Assembly: GCA_043797085.1 (NCBI GenBank)
Contig: JAZDQA010000013.1
Location: 1 to 64,000, forward strand
From: Pseudomonadota bacterium
GTDB taxonomy: Bacteria; Campylobacterota; Campylobacteria; Campylobacterales; Sulfurimonadaceae
Direction of reading: 5' to 3'
DNA: 64,000 bases
This document shows, piece by piece, positions 6,237 through 49,158 of the stretch (its first letter is position 1; each line of letters starts with the position of its first letter). The notes under the pieces are model-generated. The model made no database searches, was not told where the DNA came from, and saw nothing but the letters and a program-made list of their open reading frames with translations. The translations under genes and the position numbers were made by a program.

Positions 6237-7210
6237 AAATTCTCATCATTCTCCCCAACTGGCTGGGTGATGCCATCATGGCAACCCCTGCTATTGAAGC
6301 GCTCTGCATTATGTATCCCGATGCACAACTTACATTCGTAGGCTCGTATGTGAGCATCGAAGCGCTTAAACATCATCCGCAATGTGTCCGTTCTTATGTA
6401 GATGAGACGAAAAAAGAAGGCAATCGCTTTCTCAATACCTACCGCTTTGCAAAAGAGCTTGGGGTGCACGATATGGCAATCACGTTTCGAAATCAGCTCC
6501 ACTCTTCACTTTTGCTGCATTGGAGTGGTACACCCATCACCTCAGGACGAGCAAGCTGGCACTCTCGTTTTCTTTTAACGCATGCCATCAAACCTGTACA
6601 TCCAAGCCATCTTGTAGAGCAATACCGTGACATTGCCCAAAGTCTAAGTGAAAAACCACTCGAAATCGGACATCTAAAACTTCATATCAAACCTCACGTC
6701 TTTGAGCGGCCCACATTGGGGATTAATCCAGGAGCAACATATGGAAGTGCCAAACGGTGGTATCCTGAAAAATTTGCCGAAGTAGCCCGTGCCTTTAGTG
6801 ACTCCTATGAGATTGTTTTATTCGGAGGTCCCAATGAAGTGGAAATGGCAAATGACATTGAAGCACGTCTAAATGGGGTAAATGTTACGAATCTGGCAGG
6901 AAAGACATCGGTTCAAGAGCTGTGTGCGAGGATTGGGGGACTTGATTTGTTTGTCACCAATGACAGCGGTCCAATGCATGCAGCGGCTGCTTATCAAGTT
7001 CCTACGGTTGCGATTTTCGGTCCGACCCGCCATTTGGAAACATCTCAATGGATGAATGAAAAAAGTGTGATTGTCCGACATGATATGGAGTGTGCACCGT
7101 GCATGAAGCGAGAATGTCCGCTGGGACATCATGAGTGCATGAAGAGTATCACCGCTCAAGAAGTTATTGAGGCAACTAAAAAAATCTGCCTCGATAAAGG
7201 CAAGTTTTAG
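6233..7210 (+). CDS. waaF: LPS heptosyltransferase II
   Basis: PNWLGDAIM, NPGATYGSAKRW, NDSGPMH, C-x-P-C...C...H...CM motifs. Confidence 0.9.
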   Translation: MKILIILPNWLGDAIMATPAIEALCIMYPDAQLTFVGSYVSIEALKHHPQCVRSYVDETKKEGNRFLNTYRFAKELGVHDMAITFRNQLHSSLLLHWSGTPITSGRASWHSRFLLTHAIKPVHPSHLVEQYRDIAQSLSEKPLEIGHLKLHIKPHVFERPTLGINPGATYGSAKRWYPEKFAEVARAFSDSYEIVLFGGPNEVEMANDIEARLNGVNVTNLAGKTSVQELCARIGGLDLFVTNDSGPMHAAAAYQVPTVAIFGPTRHLETSQWMNEKSVIVRHDMECAPCMKRECPLGHHECMKSITAQEVIEATKKICLDKGKF

Positions 7211-7254
7211 TAGCCTAAGTATCTAGCGTAGCCAAAGGAATATGTCCCTTTGCT
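7184..7254 (-). repeat. Dispersed three-hairpin REP-like element, subtype 2 (copy A)
   Basis: Reverse complement reads ...CAAAGGGACATATTCCTTTGGC-TACGCT-agatacttaggctactaaaacttgcctttatcgaggcaga; overlaps the waaF stop. Confidence 0.85.
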
Positions 7255-7270
7255 ATTCACAATAAATAGT

Positions 7271-7855
7271 TTAAAACTCTAATCTAAATCCAAAATACCA
7301 CGAATCATTATAAGTGACATTAGCTGTTTTTAAATCGGTATCAACCTTTCGATACCCTATTTCAATGCGAGCGTTATCAATCGGTTCAGCATCGATATGG
7401 ATTCGTGTTTCCGTATAACTGTCACCGTCTTTAAACGTCAATGCCGAAGGAGCATAATACAATGCTCCGCCAACATATAATGGGAACGGTGCATTTAACG
7501 GAAGTTGTAATTCTGCTTCCATGCCCAACGGAATCGCTGCATAAATATTTCCATCGACTTTCGTATATTCACCCTTGATTCCAAGCCCAAACTTTAATCC
7601 CTGAACTCCCCGAACGTCTCTCATGACCATAAACGATACTTCCATAAGCGGATCTGGATTGCTGATCGTTTGGCTATTATTGTTATCTCCATTCAAAAAA
7701 CGAGCACCTAAATAGGTGTTTTCCATACTCCCCATTCGTCCCATGTCCAAACGGATTTGTCCTTCGACATCTTTATCGTTCACGTTCACTTCAATTTGAT
7801 GCGCTGCAAATACGCTTGTCCCCATCAAAGTCGTTAAAATAATCTTTTTTAGCAT
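7271..7855 (-). CDS. YfaZ-family outer membrane beta-barrel protein
   Basis: Signal peptide, YYAPSAL motif, IGYR, amphipathic strands, C-terminal Phe. Confidence 0.7.
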   Translation of the reverse strand: MLKKIILTTLMGTSVFAAHQIEVNVNDKDVEGQIRLDMGRMGSMENTYLGARFLNGDNNNSQTISNPDPLMEVSFMVMRDVRGVQGLKFGLGIKGEYTKVDGNIYAAIPLGMEAELQLPLNAPFPLYVGGALYYAPSALTFKDGDSYTETRIHIDAEPIDNARIEIGYRKVDTDLKTANVTYNDSWYFGFRLEF

Positions 7856-9282
7856 GTTAATCCTTCATTTATTCGTGCAATAGTTGCTGTTGTACTTTTT
7901 CCGTCAACAAACTGCACCAGTCTAAGCTCTCTAGCAAATTCCGCTCCAACTACCGATTTTCCCTCATAATCGCCACCTTTGACGAGAATATCCGGAGCAA
8001 TACTTTTAATCAATTCATACGGTGTTTCATCACTAAAGAGGACAACATAATCGACCGCTTCCAATGCACCTAAAATATAGGCACGATCTTCTTCGGTGTT
8101 CACGGGACGAGTCGGACCTTTGAGTACACGCACCGATGCATCCGTGTTGAGTCCAACGATTAGCACATCCCCATAACTTTTTGCCTCTTGAAGATATTTG
8201 ACATGTCCGACGTGGAGAATATCAAAACATCCGTTTGTAAAGACAATCCGTTTATTTTTAGCTTTAAGGCGTTGCACAATCTCAGCAATCTCACCGAAAG
8301 ATTTAAGATGTGCTCGCGAATCGCTTTGGTGAAGCGTTGCTTCGTATTCTTCAATCTCTTCGAGCGTTACGGTAGCCGAACCTATTTTACCCACGACCAC
8401 GGCGGCGGCACGATTGGAAAACTTCGCCGACTCATCGATACTCATCCCGCAACTCAGAGCAAAAGAAAGTGACGCAATAACCGTATCTCCAGCACCCGTC
8501 ACATCAAAAACCTCACGAGCCACTGTTGGAAAACGGCGCATTAAACCATCATCGATTGCAATACCATCTTCAGAGAGGGTAATCATCGAACACTCTAAAT
8601 CACACGTATCTTTGAGTTGTAACAATGCCGCACGTAATGACGATTCATTATTAATCGTAATTCCCGTAGCTTCTGATGCCTCTTTTTTATTGGGTGTGAG
8701 TAAATAGGCGCCACGGTATTTGGTATAATCTTTCCCTTTGGGATCGACAAGCACTTTTTTGCCCAACGTTCGTGCACTACGTATGATTCCCTGTGCGAGC
8801 GAATCAGTAATGACCCCTTTGCCATAATCGGAGAGAATTACCACATCACACTCACTCATCACCTGTGAAGCATACGCTATTACCGCTTGGGTTGACTCGT
8901 TAGAAATTGACTCTTTAGATTCACGGTCATAACGGAGAATTTGTTGATTGGAAGCCACAATACGACTTTTTTTAGAGGTTTTGCGATCCTTTTGAACGAC
9001 TAATCCTTCGCACGACACTCCTAGTTTTTCTAACATTGTTCGCAGCTCTTCACCACTTTCATCGTTTCCGATCACCCCTGCGACACAGACATTTGAACCC
9101 AAAGCCACAAGATTATTGATAACGTTCCCAGCACCGCCTAAAACCGTCGTTTCACGTGAAATATCAACCACTTGGACGGGCGCTTCAGGAGAGATACGCT
9201 CACATCCTCCCCACAGATAATGATCGATCATCAAATCACCGATCACTAAAATACGCGGATGAGACGCTCGAAGATGCATCAT
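7849..9282 (-). CDS. hldE: Bifunctional heptose 7-phosphate kinase / heptose 1-phosphate adenylyltransferase
   Basis: RISPEAPV, DVTGAGDT, FTNGCFDILHVGH, KGGDY. Confidence 0.97.
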   Translation of the reverse strand: MMHLRASHPRILVIGDLMIDHYLWGGCERISPEAPVQVVDISRETTVLGGAGNVINNLVALGSNVCVAGVIGNDESGEELRTMLEKLGVSCEGLVVQKDRKTSKKSRIVASNQQILRYDRESKESISNESTQAVIAYASQVMSECDVVILSDYGKGVITDSLAQGIIRSARTLGKKVLVDPKGKDYTKYRGAYLLTPNKKEASEATGITINNESSLRAALLQLKDTCDLECSMITLSEDGIAIDDGLMRRFPTVAREVFDVTGAGDTVIASLSFALSCGMSIDESAKFSNRAAAVVVGKIGSATVTLEEIEEYEATLHQSDSRAHLKSFGEIAEIVQRLKAKNKRIVFTNGCFDILHVGHVKYLQEAKSYGDVLIVGLNTDASVRVLKGPTRPVNTEEDRAYILGALEAVDYVVLFSDETPYELIKSIAPDILVKGGDYEGKSVVGAEFARELRLVQFVDGKSTTATIARINEGLTC

Positions 9283-10289
9283 GAAAGCTCCTCAACAAAG
9301 AGCCGTTGGATCTCAGGAACGTACGCAGCAATCCCCTCTTCAAACTCAAAACGCGGAGAATATCCTAAAACATCATGGGTGCTTTGAATATCGGCTTCGG
9401 TATGGAACTGATACCGCCCGATATAAGGGTTAGGAACATACTCACACTCCAATGATGTACCAAGTTCAGCTTGCAAAATATCCACCATCGATTGAAACGA
9501 TCGTGCTTTGCCGGTACCTACATTAAAAACACCCGACTCTTTTGGAGATGCCGCCAAAATATTTGCTTGAATGATGTCTTCGATATAAATGAAATCACGC
9601 AAAATTTTATCCGAGTCAACAAAAAGTTTCGGATTTTTAAGTGCAAGAAGCTGATGACCAAACTGTACGACCATGGATGAGGTTTTATTTTTGAAAAACT
9701 CTCTTGGACCATAAACATTAAAATAGCGTAATCCTACGATACTGATATTGGGATGTTTTTGAGCGTATCGACGTGCGGTATGATCCATCATAAGCTTCGA
9801 AAAACCGTACACGTTTTGCGGTGCTTCACACCCTACACGCTGTGGTGATGGGGCATCGCCATACGTTGCGCCCGATGAAGCGTAAATCATATTTGCACTG
9901 TGAGCTACTGCAATGTTAAGCAAATCAACAAATGCATTGACGTTGGTTTGAATCATTAAATCCTGTTCAAGTGCCGTCGTATCGGAAATCGCCGCTTCGT
10001 GATAGATATAATCAAATTTATACAAAGCAGAAAGTTTCAATATAAGCATTTTATCATTTATATCTCCGCTGATCACGTCACCGTGAAACCCGAGTAGATT
10101 TTTAAAATGACCGAAACTTTTAAGATTTCCATTCGAAAGGGTGAGATTGGAGCGAAATAGATCCAACACAACAACACGAGCTTGAGGATAATTTTCTTGA
10201 AAATAAAAAGCAAGATTGGAGCCGATAAAACCTGCTCCCCCTGTAATAAGAATGGTTTTGTTATTAAAATCAACATCACTGTAGCGCAT
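9279..10289 (-). CDS. hldD: ADP-L-glycero-D-manno-heptose 6-epimerase
   Basis: TGGAGFIGSN, YASSGATYG, YGFSK, LRYFNVYGP; adjacent to hldE. Confidence 0.93.
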   Translation of the reverse strand: MRYSDVDFNNKTILITGGAGFIGSNLAFYFQENYPQARVVVLDLFRSNLTLSNGNLKSFGHFKNLLGFHGDVISGDINDKMLILKLSALYKFDYIYHEAAISDTTALEQDLMIQTNVNAFVDLLNIAVAHSANMIYASSGATYGDAPSPQRVGCEAPQNVYGFSKLMMDHTARRYAQKHPNISIVGLRYFNVYGPREFFKNKTSSMVVQFGHQLLALKNPKLFVDSDKILRDFIYIEDIIQANILAASPKESGVFNVGTGKARSFQSMVDILQAELGTSLECEYVPNPYIGRYQFHTEADIQSTHDVLGYSPRFEFEEGIAAYVPEIQRLFVEELS

Positions 10290-10412
10290 TCGTCATCCTT
10301 GCTAATATAAGTAGCACATTGTAACAAAGCTTGCTTTAAAGGATGAAAAAGTTAGTGTGATTTAAGATTGATACCATTATAATGTTGAGGAAATTTTTAT
10401 ATGGAGAAACAA

Positions 10413-10709
10413 ATGAAAAAAATTGCTCTTGCAATGTTATTCGCTGGCGTATCAATGATGGCAGCAGACGGAAAAGCTCTTTCTGCTAAATGTGCTGCAT
10501 GTCATGGTGCTAGCTTCGAAAAAGCGGCTCTTGGTAAATCAGCAATCGTAAAAGGTCAATCAGCATCAGCTGTTGAAGCTTCTTTGAAAGGCTATAAAGC
10601 CGGTTCTTTGAACAAAGCTGGTATGGGCGCATTGATGAAAGGTCAAGTGGCAACTATGTCTGACGCTGACATCAAAGCAGTTGCAACATACATTGCAGGA
10701 ATTAAATAA
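10413..10709 (+). CDS. Monoheme cytochrome c553
   Basis: Signal peptide, CAACHG, distal Met (LMKGQ); GGAG RBS before ATG 10413. Confidence 0.92.
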   Translation: MKKIALAMLFAGVSMMAADGKALSAKCAACHGASFEKAALGKSAIVKGQSASAVEASLKGYKAGSLNKAGMGALMKGQVATMSDADIKAVATYIAGIK

Positions 10710-10717
10710 TTCCTGAT

Positions 10718-10798
10718 ACGCCAAAGGAATTTATCCCTTTGGCTACGCTAACGCTAAGTTTCCCTCAGCGGGAAGCTCGCGCGTAGTAAACCACGCTT
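10718..10798 (+). repeat. Dispersed three-hairpin REP-like element, subtype 1 (copy B)
   Basis: AC-GCCAAAGGAATTTATCCCTTTGGC-TACGCT-AACGCTAAGTTTCCCTCAGCGGGAAGCTCGCGCGTAGTAAACCACGCTT; between convergent genes. Confidence 0.9.
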
Positions 10799-10836
10799 TA
10801 TTTATCTTTCACTGCTTTTTAAATTTCTTGATTTAA

Positions 10837-11055
10837 TTATTCCGGTTTATACACTTTCTTTTTTAACTCTTCGCGTTTTTTCTGTTGATCGGCTAAATCA
10901 TTGAGTTCTGCTTCATCATCAAAATGGACTTGTGACATCATCTTTTTTTCATCATCAAACTGACCGTTTTTAATACCCCATAAAAATGCAGCTAATGCAA
11001 GCGCCCCTAAAAATAAAGAAGCCCCCAACATCATCGCTACTACCCAACTGTCCAT
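10837..11055 (-). CDS. ccoS: cbb3-type cytochrome oxidase maturation protein
   Basis: TM helix then FLWGIKNGQFDD; follows ccoI. Confidence 0.92.
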   Translation of the reverse strand: MDSWVVAMMLGASLFLGALALAAFLWGIKNGQFDDEKKMMSQVHFDDEAELNDLADQQKKREELKKKVYKPE

Positions 11056-11065
11056 AATTGACTCC

Positions 11066-13465
11066 TTATTTATACATCCAACGGCTTCGCATCGAGTTAC
11101 CCACCACGAGAAGAGAACTAAACGACATCGAAATCGCTGCCATCAACGGTATCACATACCCCATCATCGCCAGAGGAATCGTAATCGAGTTGTAGACCAA
11201 CGAAATCCCCAAATTTTGCTTGATAAGCCCATACGTACGTCTACTAATAGCAAACGCTTCTGCCAGCGACGTCAATGAATTATTTAAAAGCACTACATCA
11301 CTCACTTCGATAGCAATATCGCTTCCGCTTCCCATAGAAATACCGATGTCTGCGCGCGCTAACGCCAGTAAATCATTGACACCATCACCTGCCATGACAA
11401 CAACATGCCCCTCACTGTGAGCGTTCTCAATAAATGCTGCTTTTTGTTCAGGGCTTAAATGTGCATGAACCTCATCAATCCCAACTTCATTTGCCACACG
11501 CATCGCCGCACGCTCATGATCTCCGGTGAGCATCACAACTCGTAATCCAAATTTTTTCAATGCAGCAATCGATTCCAGTGCTTTTTCTTTCGGACCGTCA
11601 CGAAGTTCATAGGTCGCTACAAGTACCCCGTTAACTGCGTAATAAAAAAGGCTTTTATCACTTACTGATTCTGTCACTATCGAGCTGTCCTTCATTAAAA
11701 GGGCATTTCCCCCTACAATCATCATCCCCTCATGGCGAGCAACGATACCTCGTGCGGGAATTTCGTGTAAATCATCAAGAGAAATCTGTTCTAAGTGCTC
11801 ATCCCCTCGCTCTAAATATTCACAAATACCCCGACTGATTGGGTGTTTAGAAGCTTTTGCCAGTGAATAAAGAATGGAGTTATCAAATGTTTCGTGAATC
11901 GTCGCATACACGACTTCCGGACGACCTTGCGTAATCGTCCCTGTCTTATCCAGTACCACCATCGATGTTTTCGCCATCGTCTCGATTTGTGCCGCTGATT
12001 TAAACAGTATCCCTCGCTTCGCCCCAAGTGCAAGTCCTACCAAAGTTGCAACCGGAGTCGCAAGCGCAAGAGCACACGGACACGCGATAATAATCACCGA
12101 AATCCCCACCATCAAAGAGCGATCAAAACTGTGCGGCCAAAAGTACCAAAACCAAAATGTTCCGATTGCCAAAAATAAAATGGTTGAGGAAAAATGCTGT
12201 GACAAACGATTTGCCAACTGCTCGATGTTGGGCTTATGGCTCAACGCATTTTCAAGCAAGTTTACTAAATGAGAAAGGGTTGAATGGGCAAAATCTTTTG
12301 TGGCACGATAATGAAGAAGGGCATCAATGCTTGTCGTACCGCTAATAATTAAGTCGCTTGGTCGTTTAAAAATCGGTTCCGATTCTCCGGTGAGATTAGA
12401 CTCATCGAAATTTCCCTCGCCTGTGATGACTTCACCATCAATAGCCGCTCTCTCTCCGCTTCGAATTCGTATAATATCCCCGACTCTAACCTCATTAACA
12501 TTCACATCGCGAACACTATCGCCCTCAACAATGCTTACTTCTGATGGGATATGTTTACTCATCACATCCAAAGTATCCGCAGCATTTTTACGGCTCAACA
12601 CCTCTAAAAATTTTCCAAACAGTACAAAGGTGATAATCATCGCTACCGAATCAAAATAGGCTTCCCCTTTTTCAAATACGGTAATATAAATAGAGTAAAG
12701 ATACGCCAGACTCGATCCCGTGACCACGAGTAAATCCATCGTGACCGCACGATTTCGCAATCCATAATACGCCCCACGGTAAAAAACCCATCCGCTGTAA
12801 AAAAGTACCGGTGTTGCCAAAAACCACTCGGCGATATTGAGAATCGTCTTAATATCTTGCGTGATCCCTGTAAAATATCCTGCATATTGTGCAACCGCAA
12901 TCCACATCATGTTCATCGCGGCAAACGTCGCGACCGCCATACGCAGATAATACTCTTTGCGCTCTTTGTTCGCACGTACTTCTTGAAACGACGCATCATA
13001 CGGAAATGCGTTATAACCGATGGCGCGAATCATATCGATGATGGCAGAGAGATTAAGTACACTGGCATCCCATGTGATACGGGCTTTGTTGTTGGTATAG
13101 TTGATATTCGCTTCAATAACACCATCCATCTTATGGAGCGCTTTTTCATTGAGCCACACACATGCAGCACAGTGAATCCCTTCGATAACGAGAGAAACTT
13201 GAGATAACCCTTGCGAATCTTGCGTGACAAAACGCTCATGAAAAGCGGGTGTGTCAAAATTGGAACTCGCCTCAAATTGTTCTGTTGGAGGTGCTAAAGT
13301 AGTCTCTCCCATCTTGGAATAAAAACTCTCCAGCCCTTCGTCTTTAAGAAGATGAAAAATACCCCGACATCCATTACAGCAAAAGCGATACTCTCCATCA
13401 TGAATCATCACCGAATCACTAAATTCCAAATGGCAATGGTCGCATTTCACTTTAGACATATTCAA
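11066..13465 (-). CDS. ccoI: Copper-translocating P1B-type ATPase (CcoI/FixI type)
   Basis: CDHC...FCCNGC N-terminal domain, HMA GIHCAAC, TGES, CPCAL, DKTGT, GDGVND; upstream of ccoS. Confidence 0.9.
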   Translation of the reverse strand: MNMSKVKCDHCHLEFSDSVMIHDGEYRFCCNGCRGIFHLLKDEGLESFYSKMGETTLAPPTEQFEASSNFDTPAFHERFVTQDSQGLSQVSLVIEGIHCAACVWLNEKALHKMDGVIEANINYTNNKARITWDASVLNLSAIIDMIRAIGYNAFPYDASFQEVRANKERKEYYLRMAVATFAAMNMMWIAVAQYAGYFTGITQDIKTILNIAEWFLATPVLFYSGWVFYRGAYYGLRNRAVTMDLLVVTGSSLAYLYSIYITVFEKGEAYFDSVAMIITFVLFGKFLEVLSRKNAADTLDVMSKHIPSEVSIVEGDSVRDVNVNEVRVGDIIRIRSGERAAIDGEVITGEGNFDESNLTGESEPIFKRPSDLIISGTTSIDALLHYRATKDFAHSTLSHLVNLLENALSHKPNIEQLANRLSQHFSSTILFLAIGTFWFWYFWPHSFDRSLMVGISVIIIACPCALALATPVATLVGLALGAKRGILFKSAAQIETMAKTSMVVLDKTGTITQGRPEVVYATIHETFDNSILYSLAKASKHPISRGICEYLERGDEHLEQISLDDLHEIPARGIVARHEGMMIVGGNALLMKDSSIVTESVSDKSLFYYAVNGVLVATYELRDGPKEKALESIAALKKFGLRVVMLTGDHERAAMRVANEVGIDEVHAHLSPEQKAAFIENAHSEGHVVVMAGDGVNDLLALARADIGISMGSGSDIAIEVSDVVLLNNSLTSLAEAFAISRRTYGLIKQNLGISLVYNSITIPLAMMGYVIPLMAAISMSFSSLLVVGNSMRSRWMYK

Positions 13466-13931
13466 ATTTCCCGTATTCTCGATTTTTTCGTACGTAATTG
13501 TATTGTCCGTAAATCCCCTGCATCACGATATAGACTCCGCTGCATGATCGACATGCAAACCCTATCGCCATAGCAAGATTGGCTGTCGCTTCGATGGAAT
13601 TTATAGAAAAAGGGATCATTGCACCCGTAAAAACAACGGTTTTTTGCAAGGCTAATCCTGCAATAAACTCAGCACTTAAATCCATTGTATCCGTACCATG
13701 AACCACGATAATAACTTTTTCATCGCTCTTAGCTATCGTATCCGCCAATAATGATCGATCCGTATCGTCCATTTCCAAAGAGTCTTTATAAAGTATCCCC
13801 TGAACATCAATCTCTATAACCAACGATTGAAGTATTTCTTCAAGGGCAAGATTATCTGTCGGAACAAAAAGTTCTCCAGTTAGAGGATTGTATCGTTTGT
13901 TAAAAGTTCCGCCCGTATTTAGGATAAGCAT
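13452..13931 (-). CDS. Single-domain asparaginase-family protein
   Basis: NTGGT and HGTDT catalytic Thr motifs, TGAMIP; only 159 aa. Confidence 0.85.
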   Translation of the reverse strand: MLILNTGGTFNKRYNPLTGELFVPTDNLALEEILQSLVIEIDVQGILYKDSLEMDDTDRSLLADTIAKSDEKVIIVVHGTDTMDLSAEFIAGLALQKTVVFTGAMIPFSINSIEATANLAMAIGFACRSCSGVYIVMQGIYGQYNYVRKNREYGKFEYV

Positions 13932-14435
13932 TTAAACAAGCTCCCTAAGTGTCTGTATTATACGATTCGCTTTGGATTGGCTTTCATCCGTCGATAAGAG
14001 AATGTTCATCCCCACTCCTGCACGTTGTGCCGCTTCGATGTCCCGCTCATTATCACCAATCATAACCGAGTGTGCCATATCTAAATCGTACTCTTTTTGC
14101 GCACTTATAAACATTCCGGGTTCAGGTTTTCGACATTCACACACACCATCAATACTCTCATGATGCGGGCAATGATAAATATGGGTGATGGTAATTCCAA
14201 GAGTCTTAAAATGCTCCACCATCCATTGGCTCAGTTGCGCAAAATCTTCTTCACTGTAATACCCGCGCGATATTCCCGACTGGTTGGTGACGATGATGAT
14301 GAGATAGCCGCCGTCTTGATACGCACGGCATACTTCTACTATCCCCTCAACAAGTTCAAATTCTTCGATCTTATGGAGATAATTTTTCTCGACATTAACG
14401 ACGCCGTCGCGGTCTAAAAAAAGGGCTTTAGGCAT
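13932..14435 (-). CDS. gmhB: Heptose 1,7-bisphosphate phosphatase
   Basis: FLDRDGV, TNQSG, CPH...C-x-CRKP, IGD motifs. Confidence 0.95.
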   Translation of the reverse strand: MPKALFLDRDGVVNVEKNYLHKIEEFELVEGIVEVCRAYQDGGYLIIIVTNQSGISRGYYSEEDFAQLSQWMVEHFKTLGITITHIYHCPHHESIDGVCECRKPEPGMFISAQKEYDLDMAHSVMIGDNERDIEAAQRAGVGMNILLSTDESQSKANRIIQTLRELV

Positions 14436-14445
14436 TATTTTTTGA

Positions 14446-14519
14446 ACGCCGACTGGGCAAAGCCCAGCTCAGCTACGCTTGCCGCTATGGCACTGAAGAT
14501 TGCCTCCAAAGAGGCAGAA
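14446..14519 (+). repeat. Dispersed three-hairpin REP-like element, subtype 2 (copy C)
   Basis: AC-GCCGACTGGGCAAAGCCCAGCTCAGC-TACGCT-TGCCGCTATGGCACTGAAGATTGCCTCCAAAGAGGCAGAA; first stem differs in sequence but still pairs. Confidence 0.88.
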
Positions 14520-14535
14520 GCATGATAAAGTCTTA

Positions 14536-15123
14536 TCATGCCACCCCTCCACCAAATAACTCTTTTTCGATAATGTCACAAAGGATATGCCCGATGAGGA
14601 TATGAGATTCTTGAATACGAGGTGTATCGTTTGAGGGAATGATGATTGCGTAATCCGCCATCGCAGCCATTTTTCCCCCATCTCGTCCGACAAGCGCTAC
14701 CGTCATAATATCTTTGTCTTTTGCCGACTCGAAAGCGTTGATAATATTTTGAGAATTGCCCGAAGTAGAAATACCGATAAACAAATCCCCCTCTTGTCCC
14801 ATCCCCTCTAACTGACGGGAAAATACTTTGTCATACCCATAGTCATTGCCAATCGCCGTAAGATTAGACGTGTCGGTTGTCAACGCCAACGAAGGGATAG
14901 AGGGACGATCAAACCCATAACGCCCTACCAGTTCTGCTGCGATATGCTGTGCATCCGCAGCAGAACCGCCATTACCCGCCAACATGGTTTTTTTCCCTTT
15001 TCGATACACCTCAACGCACTCTTGTGCCACCGTAACGATCGTATCTAAAAGTGCTTCATTTTCTAAAATAGCTTGTTTTGTTGCCGCTGAATCGGCAATT
15101 TGTTTGATAATGTAATTCTTCAT
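14536..15123 (-). CDS. gmhA: Phosphoheptose (sedoheptulose 7-phosphate) isomerase
   Basis: GNGGSAADAQH, STSGNS, RIQESH. Confidence 0.97.
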   Translation of the reverse strand: MKNYIIKQIADSAATKQAILENEALLDTIVTVAQECVEVYRKGKKTMLAGNGGSAADAQHIAAELVGRYGFDRPSIPSLALTTDTSNLTAIGNDYGYDKVFSRQLEGMGQEGDLFIGISTSGNSQNIINAFESAKDKDIMTVALVGRDGGKMAAMADYAIIIPSNDTPRIQESHILIGHILCDIIEKELFGGGVA

Positions 15124-15138
15124 TTGTTTCCTTTATTA

Positions 15139-15220
15139 ACGCCATCGGAATAAAATCCCGTTGGCTACGCTAACGCTAAGTTTCCCTCGGCAGGAAGCCC
15201 ACGCACAGTATACCGCGCTT
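15139..15220 (+). repeat. Dispersed three-hairpin REP-like element, subtype 1 (copy D)
   Basis: AC-GCCATCGGAATAAAATCCCGTTGGC-TACGCT-AACGCTAAGTTTCCCTCGGCAGGAAGCCCACGCACAGTATACCGCGCTT. Confidence 0.9.
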
Positions 15221-15236
15221 ATATTTATACCTAATT

Positions 15237-16202
15237 TTAATACTTAATCCCCGTAACTGAACGTACTTTTTCGATAATCGGTTGCGCAATAGCACTCGCT
15301 TTTAACGCACCGTTTTTTAAAATCTCTCTCACTTCATCTTGATTCGCTTCATAATATGAACGCTTCTCACGATAAGGACGGAAATACTCCCACAATACTT
15401 CAGCAAGATAAAGCTTGAAATGTCCATGCCCTTCACCGCCGCGCGTATAACGATCTTGCAACGCGACACGTTCATTATCATCCAAAAAGAGTTTGACAAT
15501 ATTATAAACATTGCAATTCTCAAACTCTTTGGGCTCTTCCACCCCGATCACTTCGGTCACAATCTTTTTGACGGTTTTGAGCTGCGATTTCTCTTCACCA
15601 AAAATAGTGATGGTATTGCCATAACTCTTTGACATCTTTTGCCCATCCGTTCCGGGGACAGTAGCCACGTTTTCATCGACTCGAAATTCAGGAATGGTGA
15701 AAATATCACCATACTGGTTGTTAAATTTAGTCGCAATATCCCGCGCGATCTCAACGTGCTGAATCTGATCTTTTCCCACAGGAACGACTTGCGAGCCAAA
15801 AAGCAAAATATCCGCCGCCATCAATACAGGATACGAAAAAAGGCTGTGATTGGAAGCAATTCCGCGAGCAGTTTTATCTTTGTAACTGTGTGCACGTTCG
15901 AGTAATCCCATCGGCGTAAATCCTGAGAGCACCCAATAAAGTTCTAAAACCTCTTTTACATCCGATTGCACCCAAAAGGTACTTTTAGCAGGGTCCATCC
16001 CCAAAGACAAAAAGTCCGTAGCCGCTTGCATCGTAAGATGACTCAAACGCCCGCCGTCACTGAGTGAGGACATCGCATGATAATTAGCAATAAACGCAAA
16101 TACTTCATGCTCGCCTTGCGATTGGATCATGGGAAGGATGGAGCCAAAATAATTTCCGATATGCAAATCGCCTGATGGCTGAATTCCTGTTAAAACGCGC
16201 AC
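15237..16202 (-). CDS. trpS: Tryptophanyl-tRNA synthetase
   Basis: TGIQPSGDLHIGNY, YPVLMAADIL, VPVGKDQ, KMSKS. Confidence 0.97.
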   Translation of the reverse strand: MRVLTGIQPSGDLHIGNYFGSILPMIQSQGEHEVFAFIANYHAMSSLSDGGRLSHLTMQAATDFLSLGMDPAKSTFWVQSDVKEVLELYWVLSGFTPMGLLERAHSYKDKTARGIASNHSLFSYPVLMAADILLFGSQVVPVGKDQIQHVEIARDIATKFNNQYGDIFTIPEFRVDENVATVPGTDGQKMSKSYGNTITIFGEEKSQLKTVKKIVTEVIGVEEPKEFENCNVYNIVKLFLDDNERVALQDRYTRGGEGHGHFKLYLAEVLWEYFRPYREKRSYYEANQDEVREILKNGALKASAIAQPIIEKVRSVTGIKY

Positions 16203-16306
16203 TGTAACTCCTTGAATAAGGATAATTCTACCAAATAGTGACTTAAGCTTCCTCTTAAGAAAAAGTGTGCTAAATTACTATCATATCAATTGTAAAAGGA
16301 TTTACC

Positions 16307-16648
16307 ATGAATGTTCAAATTCACTCCAAAGAGATTACCCTCACTCCTCACTTAAACGATCATATTGCCGCAGCCATTGAAAATTTCCGACGTTACCACC
16401 TCGACATTACGACCGTTAATGTAAACATCAAAAAAGAAAAACAAAGCGTTGAAGTAGAGTTTGACATCCACATCGCTCACGCGCAACCGGTTATTATCAC
16501 CGACAGTGACACACAAATTGATGCTGCCATTGACTTAGCCATTGATCGCGCGAACAAAGCATTAGGACGATTGCACGATAAAATGAAAGATCATCACGCC
16601 ACTTCACTTCGCGATATTGAAGTACCAGAAGAAGAGACTGTTGAATAG
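16307..16648 (+). CDS. hpf: Ribosome hibernation promoting factor (RaiA/HPF family)
   Basis: MNVQIHSKEITLT...AAIDLAIDRA pattern of the S30AE fold. Confidence 0.8.
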   Translation: MNVQIHSKEITLTPHLNDHIAAAIENFRRYHLDITTVNVNIKKEKQSVEVEFDIHIAHAQPVIITDSDTQIDAAIDLAIDRANKALGRLHDKMKDHHATSLRDIEVPEEETVE

Positions 16649-16649
16649 A

Positions 16650-16725
16650 ACGCCTAAAGAATGCATCCTTTAGGCTACGCTCGCCGCTATGGCACTAAAG
16701 CTTGTCCCTTGAAGGGACATTTTTT
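16650..16725 (+). repeat. Dispersed three-hairpin REP-like element, subtype 2 (copy E)
   Basis: AC-GCCTAAAGAATGCATCCTTTAGGC-TACGCT-CGCCGCTATGGCACTAAAGCTTGTCCCTTGAAGGGACATTTTTT. Confidence 0.9.
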
Positions 16726-16734
16726 GAGGTTCTC

Positions 16735-17166
16735 ATGAAGAAAATTAACGTTGTATGCCCCCATTGCAGGGGCGTGAATGCAATCCCCATCAAAGAGTCT
16801 TACGCAAAAGCTGCTTGCGGTCACTGTAAAGGCTCTTTACTTGACACCAAACCGCTCTCTGTTGATATAGCTTCGTTTGATCGACTGATGCTGAACGATG
16901 AACGTTTGATTATTGCCGATTTTTGGGCACCATGGTGCGGACCGTGTAAAAGTATGGCTCCCTCGTTCGAAGAAGCAGCACGAAGTTTCCCACTCAAAGC
17001 TCAATTTATTAAGATTAATACCGAAGAGGTTCAACAACTAGGCTCACGTTTTGGTATCCGCTCCATTCCCACCGTTATCGCCTTTAAAAACAACCGAATC
17101 GTTGATCAGTTTAGCGGTGCACTCCCAGCCTCCCAAATCATTGCTTGGGTGCGTAAACATCTTTAA
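16735..17166 (+). CDS. trxC: Thioredoxin 2 (Zn-finger thioredoxin)
   Basis: CPHC...CGHC zinc finger and WCGPC; start at ATG 16735 after GAGG. Confidence 0.93.
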   Translation: MKKINVVCPHCRGVNAIPIKESYAKAACGHCKGSLLDTKPLSVDIASFDRLMLNDERLIIADFWAPWCGPCKSMAPSFEEAARSFPLKAQFIKINTEEVQQLGSRFGIRSIPTVIAFKNNRIVDQFSGALPASQIIAWVRKHL

Positions 17167-17243
17167 AACCACCCTCTTTTCTTTACCACAGCCTAATTCT
17201 TTTTTCGCTACTCTTCGCTACTTTACTATATAGGATATAACTC

Positions 17244-17687
17244 ATGTACAACTGGATGCTTTGGTTTCATATTATTTCAATGGTGTCGTGGTTTGCGGTA
17301 CTCTTTTATCTTCCCCGTCTGTTTGTTTATCACGTTGAAAACAATCAAAACAACGGATTTTTAGAAGTCGTTGAAGTAATGGAGATGAAGATTTATAAAT
17401 ACATCGGCGTTCCCGCATTTTGGGCAACGTTGTTATCAGGTATCGCATTGATTGCAATGTCTACCGCCCATTATGGAATGAATGTATTTCAAATGGGAGG
17501 ATGGATGCACGCTAAAATGACGCTCGTAACTATTTTGATCGCCTATTTTTTCTCACTCGGACACTACCGTCTGAAACTAAAAGAAAATACTGCTTATAAA
17601 AGTGGGAAGTTTTTTAGAATGTATAACGAAGTACCGACGCTTTTACTCATCGGCATAGTTGCCCTGGTGATTGTAAAACCGTTTTGA
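17244..17687 (+). CDS. hemJ: Protoporphyrinogen IX oxidase
   Basis: HIISMVSWFAVLFYLPRLFVYH, NEVPT, IVKPF. Confidence 0.93.
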   Translation: MYNWMLWFHIISMVSWFAVLFYLPRLFVYHVENNQNNGFLEVVEVMEMKIYKYIGVPAFWATLLSGIALIAMSTAHYGMNVFQMGGWMHAKMTLVTILIAYFFSLGHYRLKLKENTAYKSGKFFRMYNEVPTLLLIGIVALVIVKPF

Positions 17688-17696
17688 TTTTTTAAT

Positions 17697-17789
17697 ACAC
17701 CATGGGAATTAAATCCCCCTGGCTACGCTAACACTGAGTTTACCCGCAGGGGGCACAATGTCCTTCGGCAGGAAAGCCCAACTACGTTT
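17697..17789 (+). repeat. Dispersed three-hairpin REP-like element, subtype 1 (copy F), with a 20 bp internal insertion
   Basis: AC-ACCATGGGAATTAAATCCCCCTGGC-TACGCT-AACACTGAGTT[TACCCGCAGGGGGCACAATG]TCCTTCGGCAGGAAAGCCCA. Confidence 0.85.
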
Positions 17790-17798
17790 ATTGATGAT

Positions 17799-19319
17799 TT
17801 ACCACATCGCTCTTTTCTTATGCGTTTGTGGTTTTTTAGACACGTTTTTACTTTTTGCTTTAAAGAGTACCGGCGTCCCCTCGAAATCAAACTGCTCTCG
17901 CATCTGATTCGTCAAATAACGGCGATAACTAAAGTGTAACCCTTGAGGCTTGTTCATAATCAATGCAATACGCGGAGGACGAATATCGTACTGTGTTGCG
18001 AAATACAAACGGATATTCATACCGTTGATACTTGGCAAGATATGCTTACGCATTGCTGCTTGGATTACCTCATTGAGCTTGCTCGTCGAAATACGCTGCG
18101 AGTAGTTTTCATTAATTTTGAGCAACATATCGAAAATTCGGTGTACACGCTGTTTGCTTTGCGCCGAAATCGTAATGATCGGAGCATAGCTCAAAAACTT
18201 AAAGCGATCTCGTACTTCAAGGATGATCTTTTCATAATCTTCTTTAGGCGCCATATCCCATTTATTTAGGACGATAAGACACGCAAGACGATTTTTATCG
18301 ACAAATCCGGCGATTTTCTCATCCAAATCCATAAACGGTTGTGACGCATCAAGAACGAGCAAAGCGATATCGGCATTTTCTAGCATCTCTTCGGTACGCA
18401 TAAGTGCGTATTTTTCAATTCCTAAAATCTTGCCGCGCTTACGAATTCCTGCAGTATCGATAAAAGTGATTTTTTTATCTTGATACTCAACCTCTTCATC
18501 GATAGGGTCAATCGTTGTCCCCGCTACCGAACTTACAACGGAACGCTCTTCACCCAAAAGCGCATTAAGAAGTGAACTCTTTCCGACGTTAACACGACCG
18601 ATGATAGCCACTTTCATTTTATCAGCATTGCCAGGTTCATACTCTTTTACAAGCCCCTTGAACGCCTCTTCCATCTCTGCAAGATCACCGCTTACCTCTC
18701 CATCGTCATCTTCGTCGTCCATATCATCGTCATCTGACTCTTCGTCATACGATTCGACAAACGAATCAAAACCATCCATTTGATCGTCGTCTCCCTCTTC
18801 ACCCGCTTCAGGTTCTGGCTGAACGATTGCGGATTCAGGAAGTACCGAAGCCACCCAATTTAACAAAGGTAAAATGGAACGGTTATGCGAAACAGAAATA
18901 CCGAAAATATTATTCGTACCAAACTCATAATATTCCCACAGCTTCTCTTGCATCTTGTCATTGTCAATTTTATTGACGACTAAAGCAATCGATTTTCCCA
19001 TCGCTTCAAGCTCATAAAAGAGTTTTTTATCATCCTCTTCAGGCAAACTTTTACCGTCCACCATAAAGAGGATAATGTCCGCTTTATGTGCTGCTTCGAG
19101 CGATTTTTCTTTGATTCGGTCGAAAAGTTCGCACCCCTCGTCCAATCCGCCTGTGTCGAGAATTTCGACTTGTTTATCGACGACTACGGCGACACGTTTT
19201 TTGACATCTCGCGTTGTACCTGCTTGTTCAGAGGTAATCGCGTCACGCTGTTTCAGTAAACGGTTAAACAAAGAACTTTTGCCAACGTTTGGTTTACCGA
19301 TAATGGCTAATTTTTGCAT
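17799..19319 (-). CDS. der: Ribosome biogenesis GTPase Der (EngA)
   Basis: Two GTPase domains (GKPNVGKS, GRVNVGKS) and a KH-like C-terminus. Confidence 0.97.
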   Translation of the reverse strand: MQKLAIIGKPNVGKSSLFNRLLKQRDAITSEQAGTTRDVKKRVAVVVDKQVEILDTGGLDEGCELFDRIKEKSLEAAHKADIILFMVDGKSLPEEDDKKLFYELEAMGKSIALVVNKIDNDKMQEKLWEYYEFGTNNIFGISVSHNRSILPLLNWVASVLPESAIVQPEPEAGEEGDDDQMDGFDSFVESYDEESDDDDMDDEDDDGEVSGDLAEMEEAFKGLVKEYEPGNADKMKVAIIGRVNVGKSSLLNALLGEERSVVSSVAGTTIDPIDEEVEYQDKKITFIDTAGIRKRGKILGIEKYALMRTEEMLENADIALLVLDASQPFMDLDEKIAGFVDKNRLACLIVLNKWDMAPKEDYEKIILEVRDRFKFLSYAPIITISAQSKQRVHRIFDMLLKINENYSQRISTSKLNEVIQAAMRKHILPSINGMNIRLYFATQYDIRPPRIALIMNKPQGLHFSYRRYLTNQMREQFDFEGTPVLFKAKSKNVSKKPQTHKKRAMW

Positions 19320-19381
19320 TAATTGCCTTTTTAAATAAGTGTTTCATTATAGCGTAAATGCACTTAGGGTATGATTTTGAG

Positions 19382-19837: not shown

Positions 19838-19885
19838 TCCGCGTAATTAGAAAACTTTTCAATATTTTATCCACCAAGGATTGTT

Positions 19886-21043: not shown

Positions 21044-21049
21044 TCTTTT

Positions 21050-21472: not shown

Positions 21473-21475
21473 ATC

Positions 21476-22385: not shown

Positions 22386-22409
22386 ATTTAATATAGAAAA
22401 GGCTATAAA

Positions 22410-23576: not shown

Positions 23577-24596
23577 ATGTATGCAGCCTTCCGCTCTATT
23601 GGAGCTTATGTCCCCACAAAAATTCTCTCCAATGCAGATCTTGAACGTATGGTTGATACGAGTGATGAATGGATCTTTAAGCGAACAGGAATAAAAGAAC
23701 GCCATATTGCCGCAGAATCAGAAACAACCAGTGACATGGGTGTCAATGCTGCAAAGCTTGCCATAGATCGCGCTGGTATCGATAAAAGCGAAATCGATAT
23801 GGTCATTTGTGCAACCATTTCACCTGATTATTTTTGTATGCCCTCGACAGCTACTATTATTGCCGATAAACTTGGTCTCCAAAAAGTAATGGCGTACGAT
23901 ATTTCTGCAGCATGTACCGGATTTGTTTATGCACTCAGTGTAGCTAAAGCATTTATTGAATCGGGAATGAAAAAAAATGTTCTTATTATCGGAGCTGAAA
24001 AACTTAGTGCGATAACTGATTACACCGATCGTGGAACGTGCATCCTTTTTGGTGACGGTGCAGGCGCAGCAATTATCAGTGCGACCACTACCCAATCCGA
24101 AGCAATTATTGACGTTCATACAGGATCTGATGGCGCCTATGCTGATCTATTGATGACTCCAAATGGAGGAAGCGGATCAGTTCACGATGAAGCGGATCGT
24201 GAAAAAGCAGGATGCTTTATGAAGATGAAAGGGAATGAAACGTTCAAAGTCGCGGTTCGTACTCTGACAAGCGATGTTGTAGCTATTTTAGAAGAAAATA
24301 ACATTGCCTCATCAGCTATCAAACATTTCATTCCCCATCAAGCCAATTACCGTATTATCAAAGCGGTTGGTGATGCACTAAACCTAGATGAGGCTCAAGT
24401 TGTCCTTACCGTCGAAAAATACGGTAACACCTCTGGCGCATCCATTCCAATGGCAATCAATGACATCTATGAATCAGGACGCCTACAAGAGGGTGACTTG
24501 ATGCTTCTAGACGCTTTTGGTGGTGGTTTGACATGGGGCAGTGCCCTCGTTCCTTTTGCTGGAAAAGGTACTACTATTGTAACGTCAAAGGAATAA
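23577..24596 (+). CDS. fabH: Beta-ketoacyl-ACP synthase III
   Basis: [35 protein letters not shown]. Confidence 0.97.
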
Positions 24597-24657
24597 ATCC
24601 CTTTGACTACGCTAGCCGCTTAGGCACTAAAGCTTGCCTCTTATGAGGCAGAATTTT
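24582..24657 (+). repeat. Dispersed three-hairpin REP-like element, subtype 2 (copy G)
   Basis: AC-GTCAAAGGAATAAATCCCTTTGAC-TACGCT-AGCCGCTTAGGCACTAAAGCTTGCCTCTTATGAGGCAGAATTTT; contains the fabH stop. Confidence 0.9.
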
Positions 24658-35906: not shown

Positions 35907-35982
35907 AAATTCTGCCTCGCCAGAGGCTAACTTTAGTAGCCCAAGTGGCTAACGTAGCCAAAGGGATGAATTCCTTTGGCGT
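35907..35982 (-). repeat. Dispersed three-hairpin REP-like element, subtype 2 (copy I)
   Basis: Reverse complement AC-GCCAAAGGAATTCATCCCTTTGGC-TACGTT-AGCCACTTGGGCTACTAAAGTTAGCCTCTGGCGAGGCAGAATTT. Confidence 0.9.
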
Positions 35983-46167: not shown

Positions 46168-47225
46168 TCTTCCTGTGCTTCCATTTTTTCTACTTCTTCG
46201 ATAAACCTATCGACAAGCTTTTCTTCATCCAACCGTGCGACGACTTCACCCTTGACCATTACCAGCCCTGAGCCTTTACCATACGCGATTGCAACATCAG
46301 CATGCTTGGCTTCTCCGATAGCATTAACGACACACCCCATCACCGAAATATCCAACGGTTTTTTGATGTGTTTCGTCCGCTCTTCGATTACTGCAACTGC
46401 GCTGACCAAATCCGCTTCAATCCGTCCGCACGTAGGACATGAGATGATATTAACACCTTCACGTGCCACACCGCTGTCTTTTAAAATCGCACGTCCCACC
46501 TTGATCTCTTCTTCAAGCTCACCCGTAATCGAAACGCGCATCGTGTCACCGATACCATCGAGGAGTAATGCCCCAAGCCCGATAGCACTTTTAATCGTCG
46601 CATGAAAAATCGTTCCAGCCTCCGTCACACCCAAATGAAACGGATAGTTGTTTTTCGGACGTAACAACCGATACGCTTCTACGGTACGCTGAACATCACT
46701 CGCTTTGAGTGAAACTTTGATGTCGGTAAAGCCTAAATCTTCGAGAAATTTGATGTTATATTCCGCCGAGGCTACCATCCCCTCTGCCGTTTGACCATAA
46801 CGCTGCTCGAACTCTTTTTCCAAACTCCCCGCATTTACACCGATGCGTATAGGAATATGACGCTCTCCACACGCTTTGACAATCTCACGAATACGCGATT
46901 TTTCACCGATATTTCCAGGATTAAAGCGGATACAATCAACGACTTCAGCTGCGATAAGTGCTAGTTTATAATTAAAATGGATATCGGCTACGAGAGGGAG
47001 AGAAATTTGTTCTTTTATCGCTTTAAGAGCACGTGCATCCTCTTCATCAGGAACCGCCACACGAACGATGTCACATCCGGCAAAATGAAGGCGATTGATC
47101 TGCTCAACCGTGCTTGCCACATCCGACGTACGCGAATAGGTCATTGATTGTACTGAAATCGGAGCATCACCACCGATGGCAACATTTCCGACGTAAATTT
47201 TTTTGGTAGGGTATCGTGTAATCAT
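46164..47225 (-). CDS. ispG: HMBPP synthase
   Basis: VQSMT, ADIHF, NPGNIG, CPTCGR, GCVVN. Confidence 0.98.
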
Positions 47226-47256
47226 GGTGAAGATTGTAGCTTGTTGGATGTTAATT

Positions 47257-49158
47257 TTACGTAAACTCTATGGGGTCCATATCGATTTCACATAAGGGTG
47301 ATTTGATGAACTTAATCGAACGGATAAGCTCCGTGCTTTTATCACTGCGAAGCAAGATTTGAAATCGATATTTGTCCGCAATTTTTTCAATGGGAGAAGC
47401 CCCAAAACCTACAATCTCGATGGTGGGCACTGTTTTCAAAATCTCGACCACTTTTTCCATTTCACTTTTTGCTTTTATTCCATTTTTATGGGCGAACAAC
47501 AATCGTGCTAATTTCTTGTGCGGAGGATACCGCCCTTCTCGGATTTTAAGCTCATCTTTTAAAAACATCTCATAATCATCCAAATATTGAGAAAAAAATG
47601 ACTCGTTAAAACTTTGTACAATAACAGTAGAGTCATTCTTTCTCCCGCTGCGTCCTGCGATTTGGACAAGGAGTGACAATGCTTTTTCCCTCGAGCGATA
47701 ATCGGCTTGTCCCAACAAATTATCAATCCCCATTACAACTGCCAGTGCAATATCATGATAATCATGCCCTTTTGAGAGCATCTGCGTCCCTACGAGCAGA
47801 TCTATCTCACGATTATTAAACGCTTTGAGCACTTTGGTGAGTTTGTTTTGCGTTGTAATCACATCACGATCAAACTGCTGTATTTTCAGCTCACCCAAAT
47901 TTTTCTCAAAATGCTCCACCGCTTCCGCCGTCCCCAACCGTGTCGTACTTAAATGACCGCTTTGGCATTTTGGACATACTCGTGGCAATACTTCCGTATA
48001 GTTACAATAATGGCATTTCAAGGCACGTGCATTACGGTGCAAAGACATCCCGACACTGCAAAACGGACATTCGATCACATACCCGCAACCATCACACACC
48101 ATCGTTTTAAAATTCGCACGCGTAGGGATAAAAACAATCCCCTGATGACCTGCCGTAAAATTTGAAACAATATGTTCATCCAAAAATAGAGTCAATGCCT
48201 CGATGGAGGGCTCATAAACAAAAGAACGCTTGGAAGTATAATAACCACCGCGTAAACGATAAAAAGGATATTTAGCGTAACTGCCCAAACTCGGCGTTGC
48301 ACTCCCTAACACTACAGGAATTTTTAGATTTGACCCTATGTAAATCGCCATATCTCGTGCATTGTAACGGGGACGTGAGGAAGATTTATAACTCTCATCA
48401 TGCTCTTCATCCACCACGATCAATCCTAAATCAACAATAGGTAAAAACAAAGCTGACCGTGGACCTGCGATAATTTTAGCTGAACCGTCATGGATTTTTT
48501 CCAACGTCACCTTTTTTTGTTTTGGGGTCATTTTAGAGTGCCAAAGCACAAACGACTCTCCGAAATGGTGCTTAAAACGCAGTTCCATTTGAGGAGTGAG
48601 GGAGATTTCAGGGAGAAGTAATAAAGCTCTTTTTCCTTCATTTAACACTTCATCCATACGTTTCATATAGATTTCGCTTTTACCGGCACCTGTGTCACCG
48701 AAAAGTAGAGAGACAGGATGAGAACGGATGAAATTGAGGGCTTTAGTTTGCAATTCTGAGAGGGTGATGTTAACAAAATTATAAGAGCACGTAAGCGTGC
48801 GTGGGCACTCTGCCGAAGAGAACTCAGCGTTAGCGTAGGCGAGCAGGACTTGTTCTGTCGCCGTATTAATATAATGAAACGGCACAAACAAATTCAATGC
48901 CTCCCCAACCGAACACCCATAATACTCTGCCATAAACTGAGCCGTTTTGATTTGAGATTCAGAATAAACAAACGGTAAAATTTCCAAAATAGAATTGGTT
49001 TTAAACTCAGGTTTTTCTACTTCTGAAAGGACAACAGCTTCTGTTTCTCGATTGCTAAGAGTAAGAGAAACTTTCAGACCAATTGGGAGAGAAATATCAG
49101 AATGATAGGTAAGAGGTTCAAGAGGAGAGCCCAAAAGGGCTAAGGAATAATAATACAC
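47257..49158 (-). CDS. priA: Primosomal protein N' carrying an in-frame repeat insertion
   Basis: [27 protein letters not shown], four CxxC motifs, GTQM, GRSGR. Confidence 0.96.
48783..48864 (-). repeat. Dispersed three-hairpin REP-like element, subtype 1 (copy J), inside priA
   Basis: Reverse complement AC-GGCGACAGAACAAGTCCTGCTCGCC-TACGCT-AACGCTGAGTTCTCTTCGGCAGAGTGCCCACGCACGCTTACGTGC; aligns with copies D and H. Confidence 0.9.

Follow-up and report, generated by a model that had tools for sequence, protein, structure and literature searches.

The systems closest to the repeats reported here are the GTAG-type REPs (repetitive extragenic palindromic sequences), which are single palindromes of 20–40 nt (PMC3733652, PMC8266576, PMC6006769). 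Intragenic REPs and REPs that overlap stop codons are known (PMC3733652), and the cut made by TnpA-REP can be on the 5′ or the 3′ side of the hairpin (PMC8266576). Strand-specific cleavage by TnpA-REP at CT also marks the GTAG REPs. In Campylobacterota, a GTAG-footed REP of Sulfurovum sp. (SNBC-37-1), a 26-nt single hairpin, was picked by its association with a REP-associated tyrosine transposase (RAYT) (PMC4690160). REP doublets forming hairpins (REPINs), which together with bacterial interspersed mosaic elements (BIMEs) represent miniature mobile DNA in tandem clusters that include the flanks, are inverted doublets beside RAYT genes (PMC3116915). CGTC-tagged repeats and the Rickettsia palindromic elements (RPEs) have no associated transposase, can insert in-frame and are mostly head-to-head dimers (PMC3733652). 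The present work concerns a family of larger, multi-hairpin repeats with ten copies in a 64,000-nt stretch of DNA (the window, positions 1 to 64,000 of contig JAZDQA010000013.1, or G000:C13:1-64000). The genome holding the window, G000, measures 2.40 Mb and is 95.9% complete. Below, G, L, f, g and X numbers denote genomes, loci, families, genera and runs with contigs, respectively, and the strand assigned to each copy is the GTAG strand, i.e., the one that folds.

The hairpin family is real and mobile. It comprises two subtypes with covarying stems and one folded strand; its copies have been gained or lost among relatives without a fixed target or a regular target duplication, and in some relatives have been captured between terminal inverted repeats (TIRs). 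With the GTAG REPs it shares an imperfect hairpin that has GTAG at its 5′ foot, the covarying stems, the placement in tandem and convergent gaps, and the occasional in-frame copies and stop-codon overlaps. Unlike them, its copies are 70–90 nt long with two or three more conserved modules 5′ of GTAG, carry an extra covarying pair by the GTAG, occur as singlets and head-to-tail arrays only, have no RAYT gene beside them and follow a consensus common to several families. The Sulfurovum REP has an unrelated stem, and the CGTC-tagged repeats and RPEs, which likewise lack a transposase, differ in tag and fold. The family is best described as REP-like in its working (a GTAG foot, a stem that is irregular, variable flanks and a single active strand) and would not be counted as a REP member, given its size, its lack of doublets and its lack of a RAYT. 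It is apparently undescribed, the comparison with REP families GTAG-1 to -24 having been made by description and not by consensus; literature searches, which were blind to most subscription papers, returned no description of it.

Two subtypes with a shared core

The window copies were first noticed in a sequence-only reading, and all ten were located where it had placed them, including the nine that start with AC and the one (the 35907 copy) with TACGTT; the five first-stem pairs that it quoted were also correct. Its description of three hairpins per copy holds for the five type A copies of the window but not for the five type B copies, which have four potential stems. The copies and two features within them are as follows.

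7184..7256, plus strand: type A copy, degenerate (no AC start, stem 2 altered), overlapping the last 27 nt of the heptosyltransferase II gene
10718..10796, minus strand: type B copy between the convergent genes for a 102-aa open reading frame (ORF) and a heavy-metal P-type ATPase
10744..10760 (G at 10743), minus strand: example of the shared core, 5′ of stem 1, with 3-bp stem 2, covarying loop/RC pair and GTA foot
14446..14518, minus strand: type A copy between gmhA and gmhB
15139..15218, minus strand: type B copy between trpS and gmhA
16650..16719, minus strand: type A copy between the HPF/YfiA gene and trxC
17697..17780, minus strand: type B copy lying between convergent hemJ and der and holding a nested mini-repeat of 20 nt
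17741..17760, no strand assigned: nested mini-repeat sequence (TACCC..GGGCAC type) inside the preceding type B copy
24582..24652, minus strand: type A copy that provides the fabH stop codon
34792..34871, minus strand: type B copy in the convergent gap that separates the alr 3′ end from a 136-aa ORF
35911..35982, plus strand: type A copy (TACGTT/CACT variant, the 35907 copy) separating a TATAAT hexamer from the alr start
48787..48864, plus strand: type B copy (the 48783 copy), inserted in-frame within priA (47257-49158, minus strand), in its variable linker

Profiles made from 42 seed copies (non-overlapping hits, E<1e-3) count 60 copies in G000, 33 of type A and 27 of type B, so that the family is as large and dispersed as had been supposed. 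No other 64 kb of the genome is as densely populated as the window, which has 10 copies versus a mean of 1.6. A type A covariance model, which was built in part from the G000 copies themselves, retrieved exactly the ten copies in the window at E<=0.27, nine of them at E<=5.4e-4. Loose hairpin scans, with 81 and 74 hits versus 23–41 and 38–49 in shuffles, carried no information by themselves. Since specific patterns gave 20 and 23 hits versus 0 and 1 for reversed-pattern controls, and the profiles 60 hits genome-wide, the family is not a chance assembly. No Rfam family scored at or near its gathering cut-off on any copy, either in the window (0 hits) or in region 6500-26000, where four weak hits lay outside the copies. 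The contigs of G000 are unevenly populated (C3 and C14 with 0 copies, C4 with 1, C13 with 17); C4 carries a GC-skew switch.

On the strand of the sequence-only reading, opposite to the GTAG strand, the AC start of both types is followed by stem 1 (eight pairs, a conserved A-C mismatch, two pairs and a loop of 3–4 nt), by TACGYT and by stem 2, which has 3 bp and an RCTNN loop. Type A ends with ACTRAAGC, stem 3 and AGA, and type B with a stem that has a TCRGC loop, then a fourth stem; the conserved unit of 70–90 nt thus has three or four stems. The GTAG foot is present in 47 of 56 parsed G000 copies, and the second-position variants GAAG, GCAG and GGAG were also found.

As the sequence-only reading had proposed, structure is conserved over sequence in both types. 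In type A, 94.1% of cells are paired and double-sided changes occur in 15 of 22 pairs (66 rows, taken from 114 collected copies, 51 of the 66 via a fixed 28-mer); none of 500 shuffles scored as high, and slid structures were at most 52% paired. These pair counts used a corrected structure, model R1 being off by one column in the outer pairs of stem 1. The corresponding values for type B (17 copies) are 87.6% and 14 of 22 pairs, with stem 2 paired in all 17 copies and showing one double change.

An extra pair lies just 5′ of GTAG, where in both types the R in the loop of stem 2 covaries with the Y of TACGYT (103 C/G, 21 T/A, 5 C/A and 4 T/G). Mutual information ranks this R as the top partner of Y, and at one orthologous site (L207) both bases are switched. 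A tree test returned three independent supported pairs for type B and two for type A, with none opposite, which is not significant; covariation with the base after GTAG is weak. The shared core, with its 3-bp stem and the extra covarying pair 5′ of GTAG, is new anatomy. On the GTAG strand of type B the Y/R pair closes GC-GTTA-GC (GCGTTAGC), overlapping GC-GTA-GC (GCGTAGC). As DNA mini-hairpins, GCGTTAGC and GCGTAGC melt at 69.5 °C and 70 °C, respectively; RNA versions of such mini-hairpins are much weaker, the RNA form of the related GCGAAAGC melting at 39 °C, and GCGTTAGC is present at the St-1/alpha3 primase origin (PMC13037366). Since the linker is 1 nt long, the predicted mini-hairpin fold and stem 2 are more likely to be mutually alternative than to form a pseudoknot.

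Mismatches in stem 1 indicate which strand folds. On the strand of the sequence-only reading, A-C outnumbers G-T by 169 to 40 (75 to 27 in the outer eight pairs), and so it is the GTAG strand that carries the wobbles, as had been proposed. In type A the A-C:G-T bias is found in every gene context (>> 21:4, << 20:1, <> 16:0, >< 9:3). This rules out a transcription-strand mutation bias as its cause, and the GTAG strand therefore stays foldable even where it is not mRNA. The tetraloops of stem 3 are headed by G in 61 of 103 cases on the GTAG strand and in one on the opposite strand. An argument for a DNA-type tetraloop was dropped, since the single-mutant spectrum matches drift from GAAA. Contigs of RNA run X1 span several copies; they carry no strand or level.

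Gain, loss and insertion sites

Four window gaps could be compared across loci of the genus, and their occupancy is patchy with respect to gene identity. The gmhA/gmhB gap (14446 copy) is filled in 4 of 28 loci, G000 included; the trpS/gmhA gap (15139 copy) in 3 of 27, with unrelated repeats in 4 others; the HPF/YfiA-trxC gap (16650 copy) in 4 of 22, the copy being skipped in contigs of X2, X6 and X7; and the hemJ/der gap (17697 copy) in 1 of 15, with another repeat in 4. In the empty alleles the flanking genes often abut or overlap. Contigs of related organisms jump over the 7184, 10718, 16650 and 17697 copies, those of X2 and X6 holding 68 other letters in place of the 10718 copy. The 7184 site has an intact orthologue in G351, a different repeat in G002 and no insert in G348 and G011. 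The 24582 copy is missing from 6 of 6 aligned relatives, the 34792 site holds a type B copy in G007 too and none in five other relatives, and the 35907 site is filled in G351 and G002 and empty in four other relatives.

Conversely, 213 copies from relatives gave 94 distinct sites that map to G000, and there the hairpin family occupies 27, other repeats occupy 11, 39 are gaps that are short and empty, and 17 are long gaps. Since only a minority of relatives have the orthologous gaps filled, the unit has been gained or lost; the empty sites that the sequence-only reading had suggested looking for are thus present. At C10:106507 of G000 and at the window 35907 gap, relatives hold a copy of the other type or in the other orientation (L290, L309), i.e., independent insertions at one site.

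No fixed target was detected: the 4-mer 5′ of the stem was found at 1 of 36 empty junctions, where about 4 are expected by chance. Nor was a regular target duplication, of the kind tested for in miniature inverted-repeat transposable elements (MITEs), seen at these junctions, overlaps of at least 4 nt occurring at 2 of the 36, all of which are between-species pairs. Inserts bring 3–27 extra bases on the left and 0–48 on the right, and such variable flanks are expected if cleavage can take place on either the 5′ or the 3′ side of the hairpin (PMC8266576). G000 copies are at most 87% alike (identity to the nearest copy, median 0.76–0.77, maximum 0.87) and are therefore old.

Copies that lie close together are arranged head-to-tail, with 12 adjacent pairs in 10 loci. 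A stricter pattern gave six direct and no inverted pairs within 250 nt, in contrast to the inverted doublets of REPINs; G024 has one inverted pair, with a degenerate relic. Partial copies in arrays retain the GTAG-strand 3′ end.

A loose flank motif was found at 24 of 433 distinct copies, about 15 of which have real inverted-repeat ends, none of them in G000. The framed subset, in G024, G212, G047 and G095, has inverted repeats with TA outside each end; no empty allele of these composites was seen. In G024 six end pairs lie about 133 nt apart (C1:3528-3661 and five more), and four framed copies at different loci are 97–100% identical, versus at most 87% for the plain copies of G000. Framed type B copies recur in the other three genomes (L602-L631), and the same ends also occur with other cargo or with none; the hairpin unit is thus cargo and not the MITE itself. 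Recent bursts can be explained by TIR MITE capture, given the near-identity of the framed copies, and plain copies need another route. DUF772 transposases of genus g29 and a DUF772 insertion sequence of G212 have ends only partly like the MITE TIR, which is a lead only.

Proposed mobility, enzyme search and rival explanations

We lean towards regarding the family as an old non-coding mobile repeat that folds and moves as single-stranded DNA on the GTAG strand, REP-like, by means of a putative HUH-type nuclease acting in trans. The GTAG strand would be exposed at the replication fork or in a transcription bubble. The enzyme would read stem 1, with its G-T irregularity, together with the compact core at the 5′ foot of stem 1, cut at variable distances on either side and join the piece elsewhere, so that inserts would bring few to tens of flanking bases. 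Copies would persist where they are tolerated (tandem and convergent gaps, a protein linker), their orientation would be sorted by selection on transcription, and in some relatives a TIR MITE would have captured the unit and amplified it by a separate, probably DDE-type, route. More speculatively, the lineage as a whole might harbor RAYT-independent single-stranded DNA replicators, recognised not through a REP guide but through a compact, switchable core of overlapping mini-hairpins that lies 5′ of a variable stem, moved by an enzyme of a class so far unconnected with miniature repeats, and open to re-mobilisation as TIR MITE cargo; we hold this broader proposal to be doubtful. The family bears on the origin and maintenance of GTAG-type repeats that have no RAYT nearby. 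Its core is near-identical across several Campylobacterales families, comes with hundreds of natural stem variants, and is a short defined oligonucleotide that could be used to fish for the enzyme.

The sequence-only reading had attributed such repeats to RAYT/TnpA-REP nucleases and had pointed to IS200/IS605 transposases, and this part of it was not supported. No PF01797 match exists in G000, and an R1 scan (type A model, E<=1, 1.5-kb flanks) found the element at none of the 65 Y1 loci of the order (28 best-scoring ones and 37 others). Derivation from IS200/IS605 elements, as in palindrome-associated transposable elements (PATEs), would likewise be at odds with the absence of shared ends at these loci and of TnpB (PF07282) in G000. 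Among the matches listed, Y1 genes of relatives carry GGGGTCAG-type inverted repeats, a mark of the TIRYT type (PMC3733652, PMC6006769), or different palindromes of their own. Y2 genes (PF04986) occur in 5 of 401 genomes, none of them in element-rich families f1 (0/38), f8 (0/11) and f23 (0/38), and their ends do not match the copies. Reverse transcriptase (RT) genes are not linked to copies and are absent from G047 and G231.

Other candidates were rejected as well. No RAYT, TIRYT or IS200 partner is linked to copies, and no copy lies beside the small GIY-YIG gene (the sole one in G000), RT, Y2 or TnpB genes. A recurrent mobile neighbour was sought among 335 and 211 ORFs, which proved housekeeping-like or spurious as judged from similarity to G000 and by eye, with no Pfam scan. 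Clusters and close pairs in G047, G212, G231, G168, G080 and G095 flank ordinary genes, and pairs of types A and B, viewed as left and right insertion sequence (IS) ends, enclose syntenic housekeeping genes. Against a phage parent, true copies were found in 1/1, 1/14 and 3/13 viral hits, in host-like or prophage context; against a plasmid parent, the copies had no plasmid match and the TIR a single 22-nt hit. Integron attC sites and ribozyme folds do not match the layout of the copies, and Rfam gave no hit. As a separate observation, 180-aa RAYT-like genes at L016, L025, L026, L028 and L030 (genus g1) have inverted CTCGTTCCCA..TGGGAATGCAT palindromes of their own on their flanks, and these palindromes also fill the 10718 gap in G351 and G011.

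A number of results weigh against the trans-acting nuclease. G000 has no match to PF01797, PF07282 or PF04986 or to a profile of the fetched Y1 proteins; R1 at E<=1 found nothing in 75 loci (65 Y1, 6 Y2, 3 RT and 1 GIY-YIG); the Y1 profile matched none of 8982 ORFs of fetched loci, most of which are element loci; and in family f1, PF01797 is present in 5/11 genomes with the element and in 6/13 without it. The empty/filled pairs are all between species, and exact ends have that resolution; variable flanks may therefore be due to later intergenic change, and patchiness may stem from loss or homologous exchange. Core invariance of type A is inflated by the use of the fixed 28-mer to pick 51 of its 66 rows. 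With regard to the folded strand, type B copies in sense context show A-C 1 versus G-T 3 (7 copies), the wobbles read equally, and indistinguishably, as G-T or G-U, and the tetraloops cannot tell DNA from RNA since their spectrum fits drift from GAAA.

The last two points bring in a repeated structured RNA transcribed from the GTAG strand, in which case the RNA would be what is selected and perhaps also what moves. GNRA loops make up 26 of the 103 stem-3 tetraloops, the GTAG strand is the better RNA fold in 47 of 57 copies, and its 3′ end is what partial copies in arrays keep. However, type A copies are mostly placed so that host transcription yields the other strand (19 sense, 8 antisense), no conserved promoter was seen at the GTAG-strand 5′ end, there is no Rfam match, and RT is unlinked and absent in two genomes; such an RNA is thus an unlikely explanation. 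Somewhat less likely still is that the copies are mRNA elements selected by the host (terminators, stabilisers or translation spacers) and spread by recombination or gene conversion without a dedicated mobiliser. The two subtypes do differ in orientation in tandem gaps of G000 (A 19:8 sense to antisense, B 5:15, p=0.003; other loci, p=0.002), a stem and T-rich tail frequently close type B copies, and orthologous copies show compensatory changes in place. Yet most relatives lack the element at each site, with the genes abutting or overlapping, the neighbours of copies share no function, pairing is maintained on the non-mRNA strand, and a terminator-like call was obtained for only 3 of 7 copies in 6500-26000 (overall, 22 found versus 17.9 expected).

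A stray single-strand initiation signal of primase or PriA type, priming an excised single-stranded form or the fork, would account for the multi-hairpin layout and for GCGTTAGC being the mini-hairpin of the St-1/alpha3 primase origin (PMC13037366). The GTAG strand of type B is the lagging-strand template in 22 of 27 G000 copies (p=0.0015), a bias that is weak and not significant in G047 (14:7) and G212 (15:11). We consider this signal improbable, since the phage motif caps hairpin I while here it sits between stems, type A has neither the exact motif nor the strand bias (13/33), and the family is nearly absent from viral contigs (one hit for the 27-mer) and without a plasmid match. Most improbable of all is a non-autonomous rolling-circle element of IS91 type whose origin end would be fixed and lie on the AC side. 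IS91 elements use GTTC/CTTG targets without target-site duplication (PMC13181058); about half of type A copies have GTTC after stem 1 on the GTAG strand, and the lack of duplication and the head-to-tail arrays with a truncated last unit agree with this route. It is largely refuted by the empty-site test, in which the tetramer occurred in 1 of 36 sites. PF04986 is scarce and the Y2 transposases have different ends; tandem arrays, moreover, occur in REPINs too (PMC3116915).

Gene context and distribution

Copies in G000 lie mainly in tandem and convergent gaps and avoid divergent ones (4 of 60 copies versus 221 of 727 gaps, p=2e-5). Their effects on host genes include the separation of coupled genes, the supply of stop codons, a leader for alr and about 20–25 residues in PriA. 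The 24582 copy extends the FabH C-terminus (..TTIVTSKE, then stop). In relatives that are empty at the 35907 site, the TATAAT hexamer, which we infer to be a promoter element, and the alr start are 5–6 nt apart. The 48783 copy lies within a gene and not between genes; its insert in the PriA linker is shared by G007, and other repeats are in-frame there in G002 and G353. Three different repeat families are thus in-frame at one linker across species (window about 48790-48870; L255, L261, L265), and in relatives CGTC-tagged repeats are found in the gaps, and in the priA linker, that the hairpin family uses.

The exact type A 28-mer was found at at least 115 loci, including records named Sulfuricurvum, Sulfurimonas and Sulfurospirillum. 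Of 301 genomes of the order, 49 have the type A pattern (f1 11/24, f8 8/11, genus g29 15/15; none in f10, f12 and f26, with 24 genomes each), and the covariance model has hits in 9 of 151 genomes of a draw from the phylum that was dominated by f12 and f26. True copies also lie between structural genes of two prophage-like viral contigs (L376, L399).

Several further repeats were seen in the same region. The convergent gap at about 25060-25110 of the window holds a CGTC/TGTC-type palindromic repeat, and the same gap holds a type A copy in G024 and other repeats in G007 and G348. A degenerate type A-like relic at about 26845-26915, upstream of a 551-aa ORF (25116-26771, DEAD-box helicase-like by eye), is kept in 6 of 7 genomes compared and has possibly been co-opted as a leader. 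The ACCC..GGGCAC mini-repeat (19–21 nt) at 17741-17760 recurs at about 20 other places in G000 (31 pattern hits versus 8–14 in shuffles), nested in stems of the hairpin family (11 copies) and of other repeat families.

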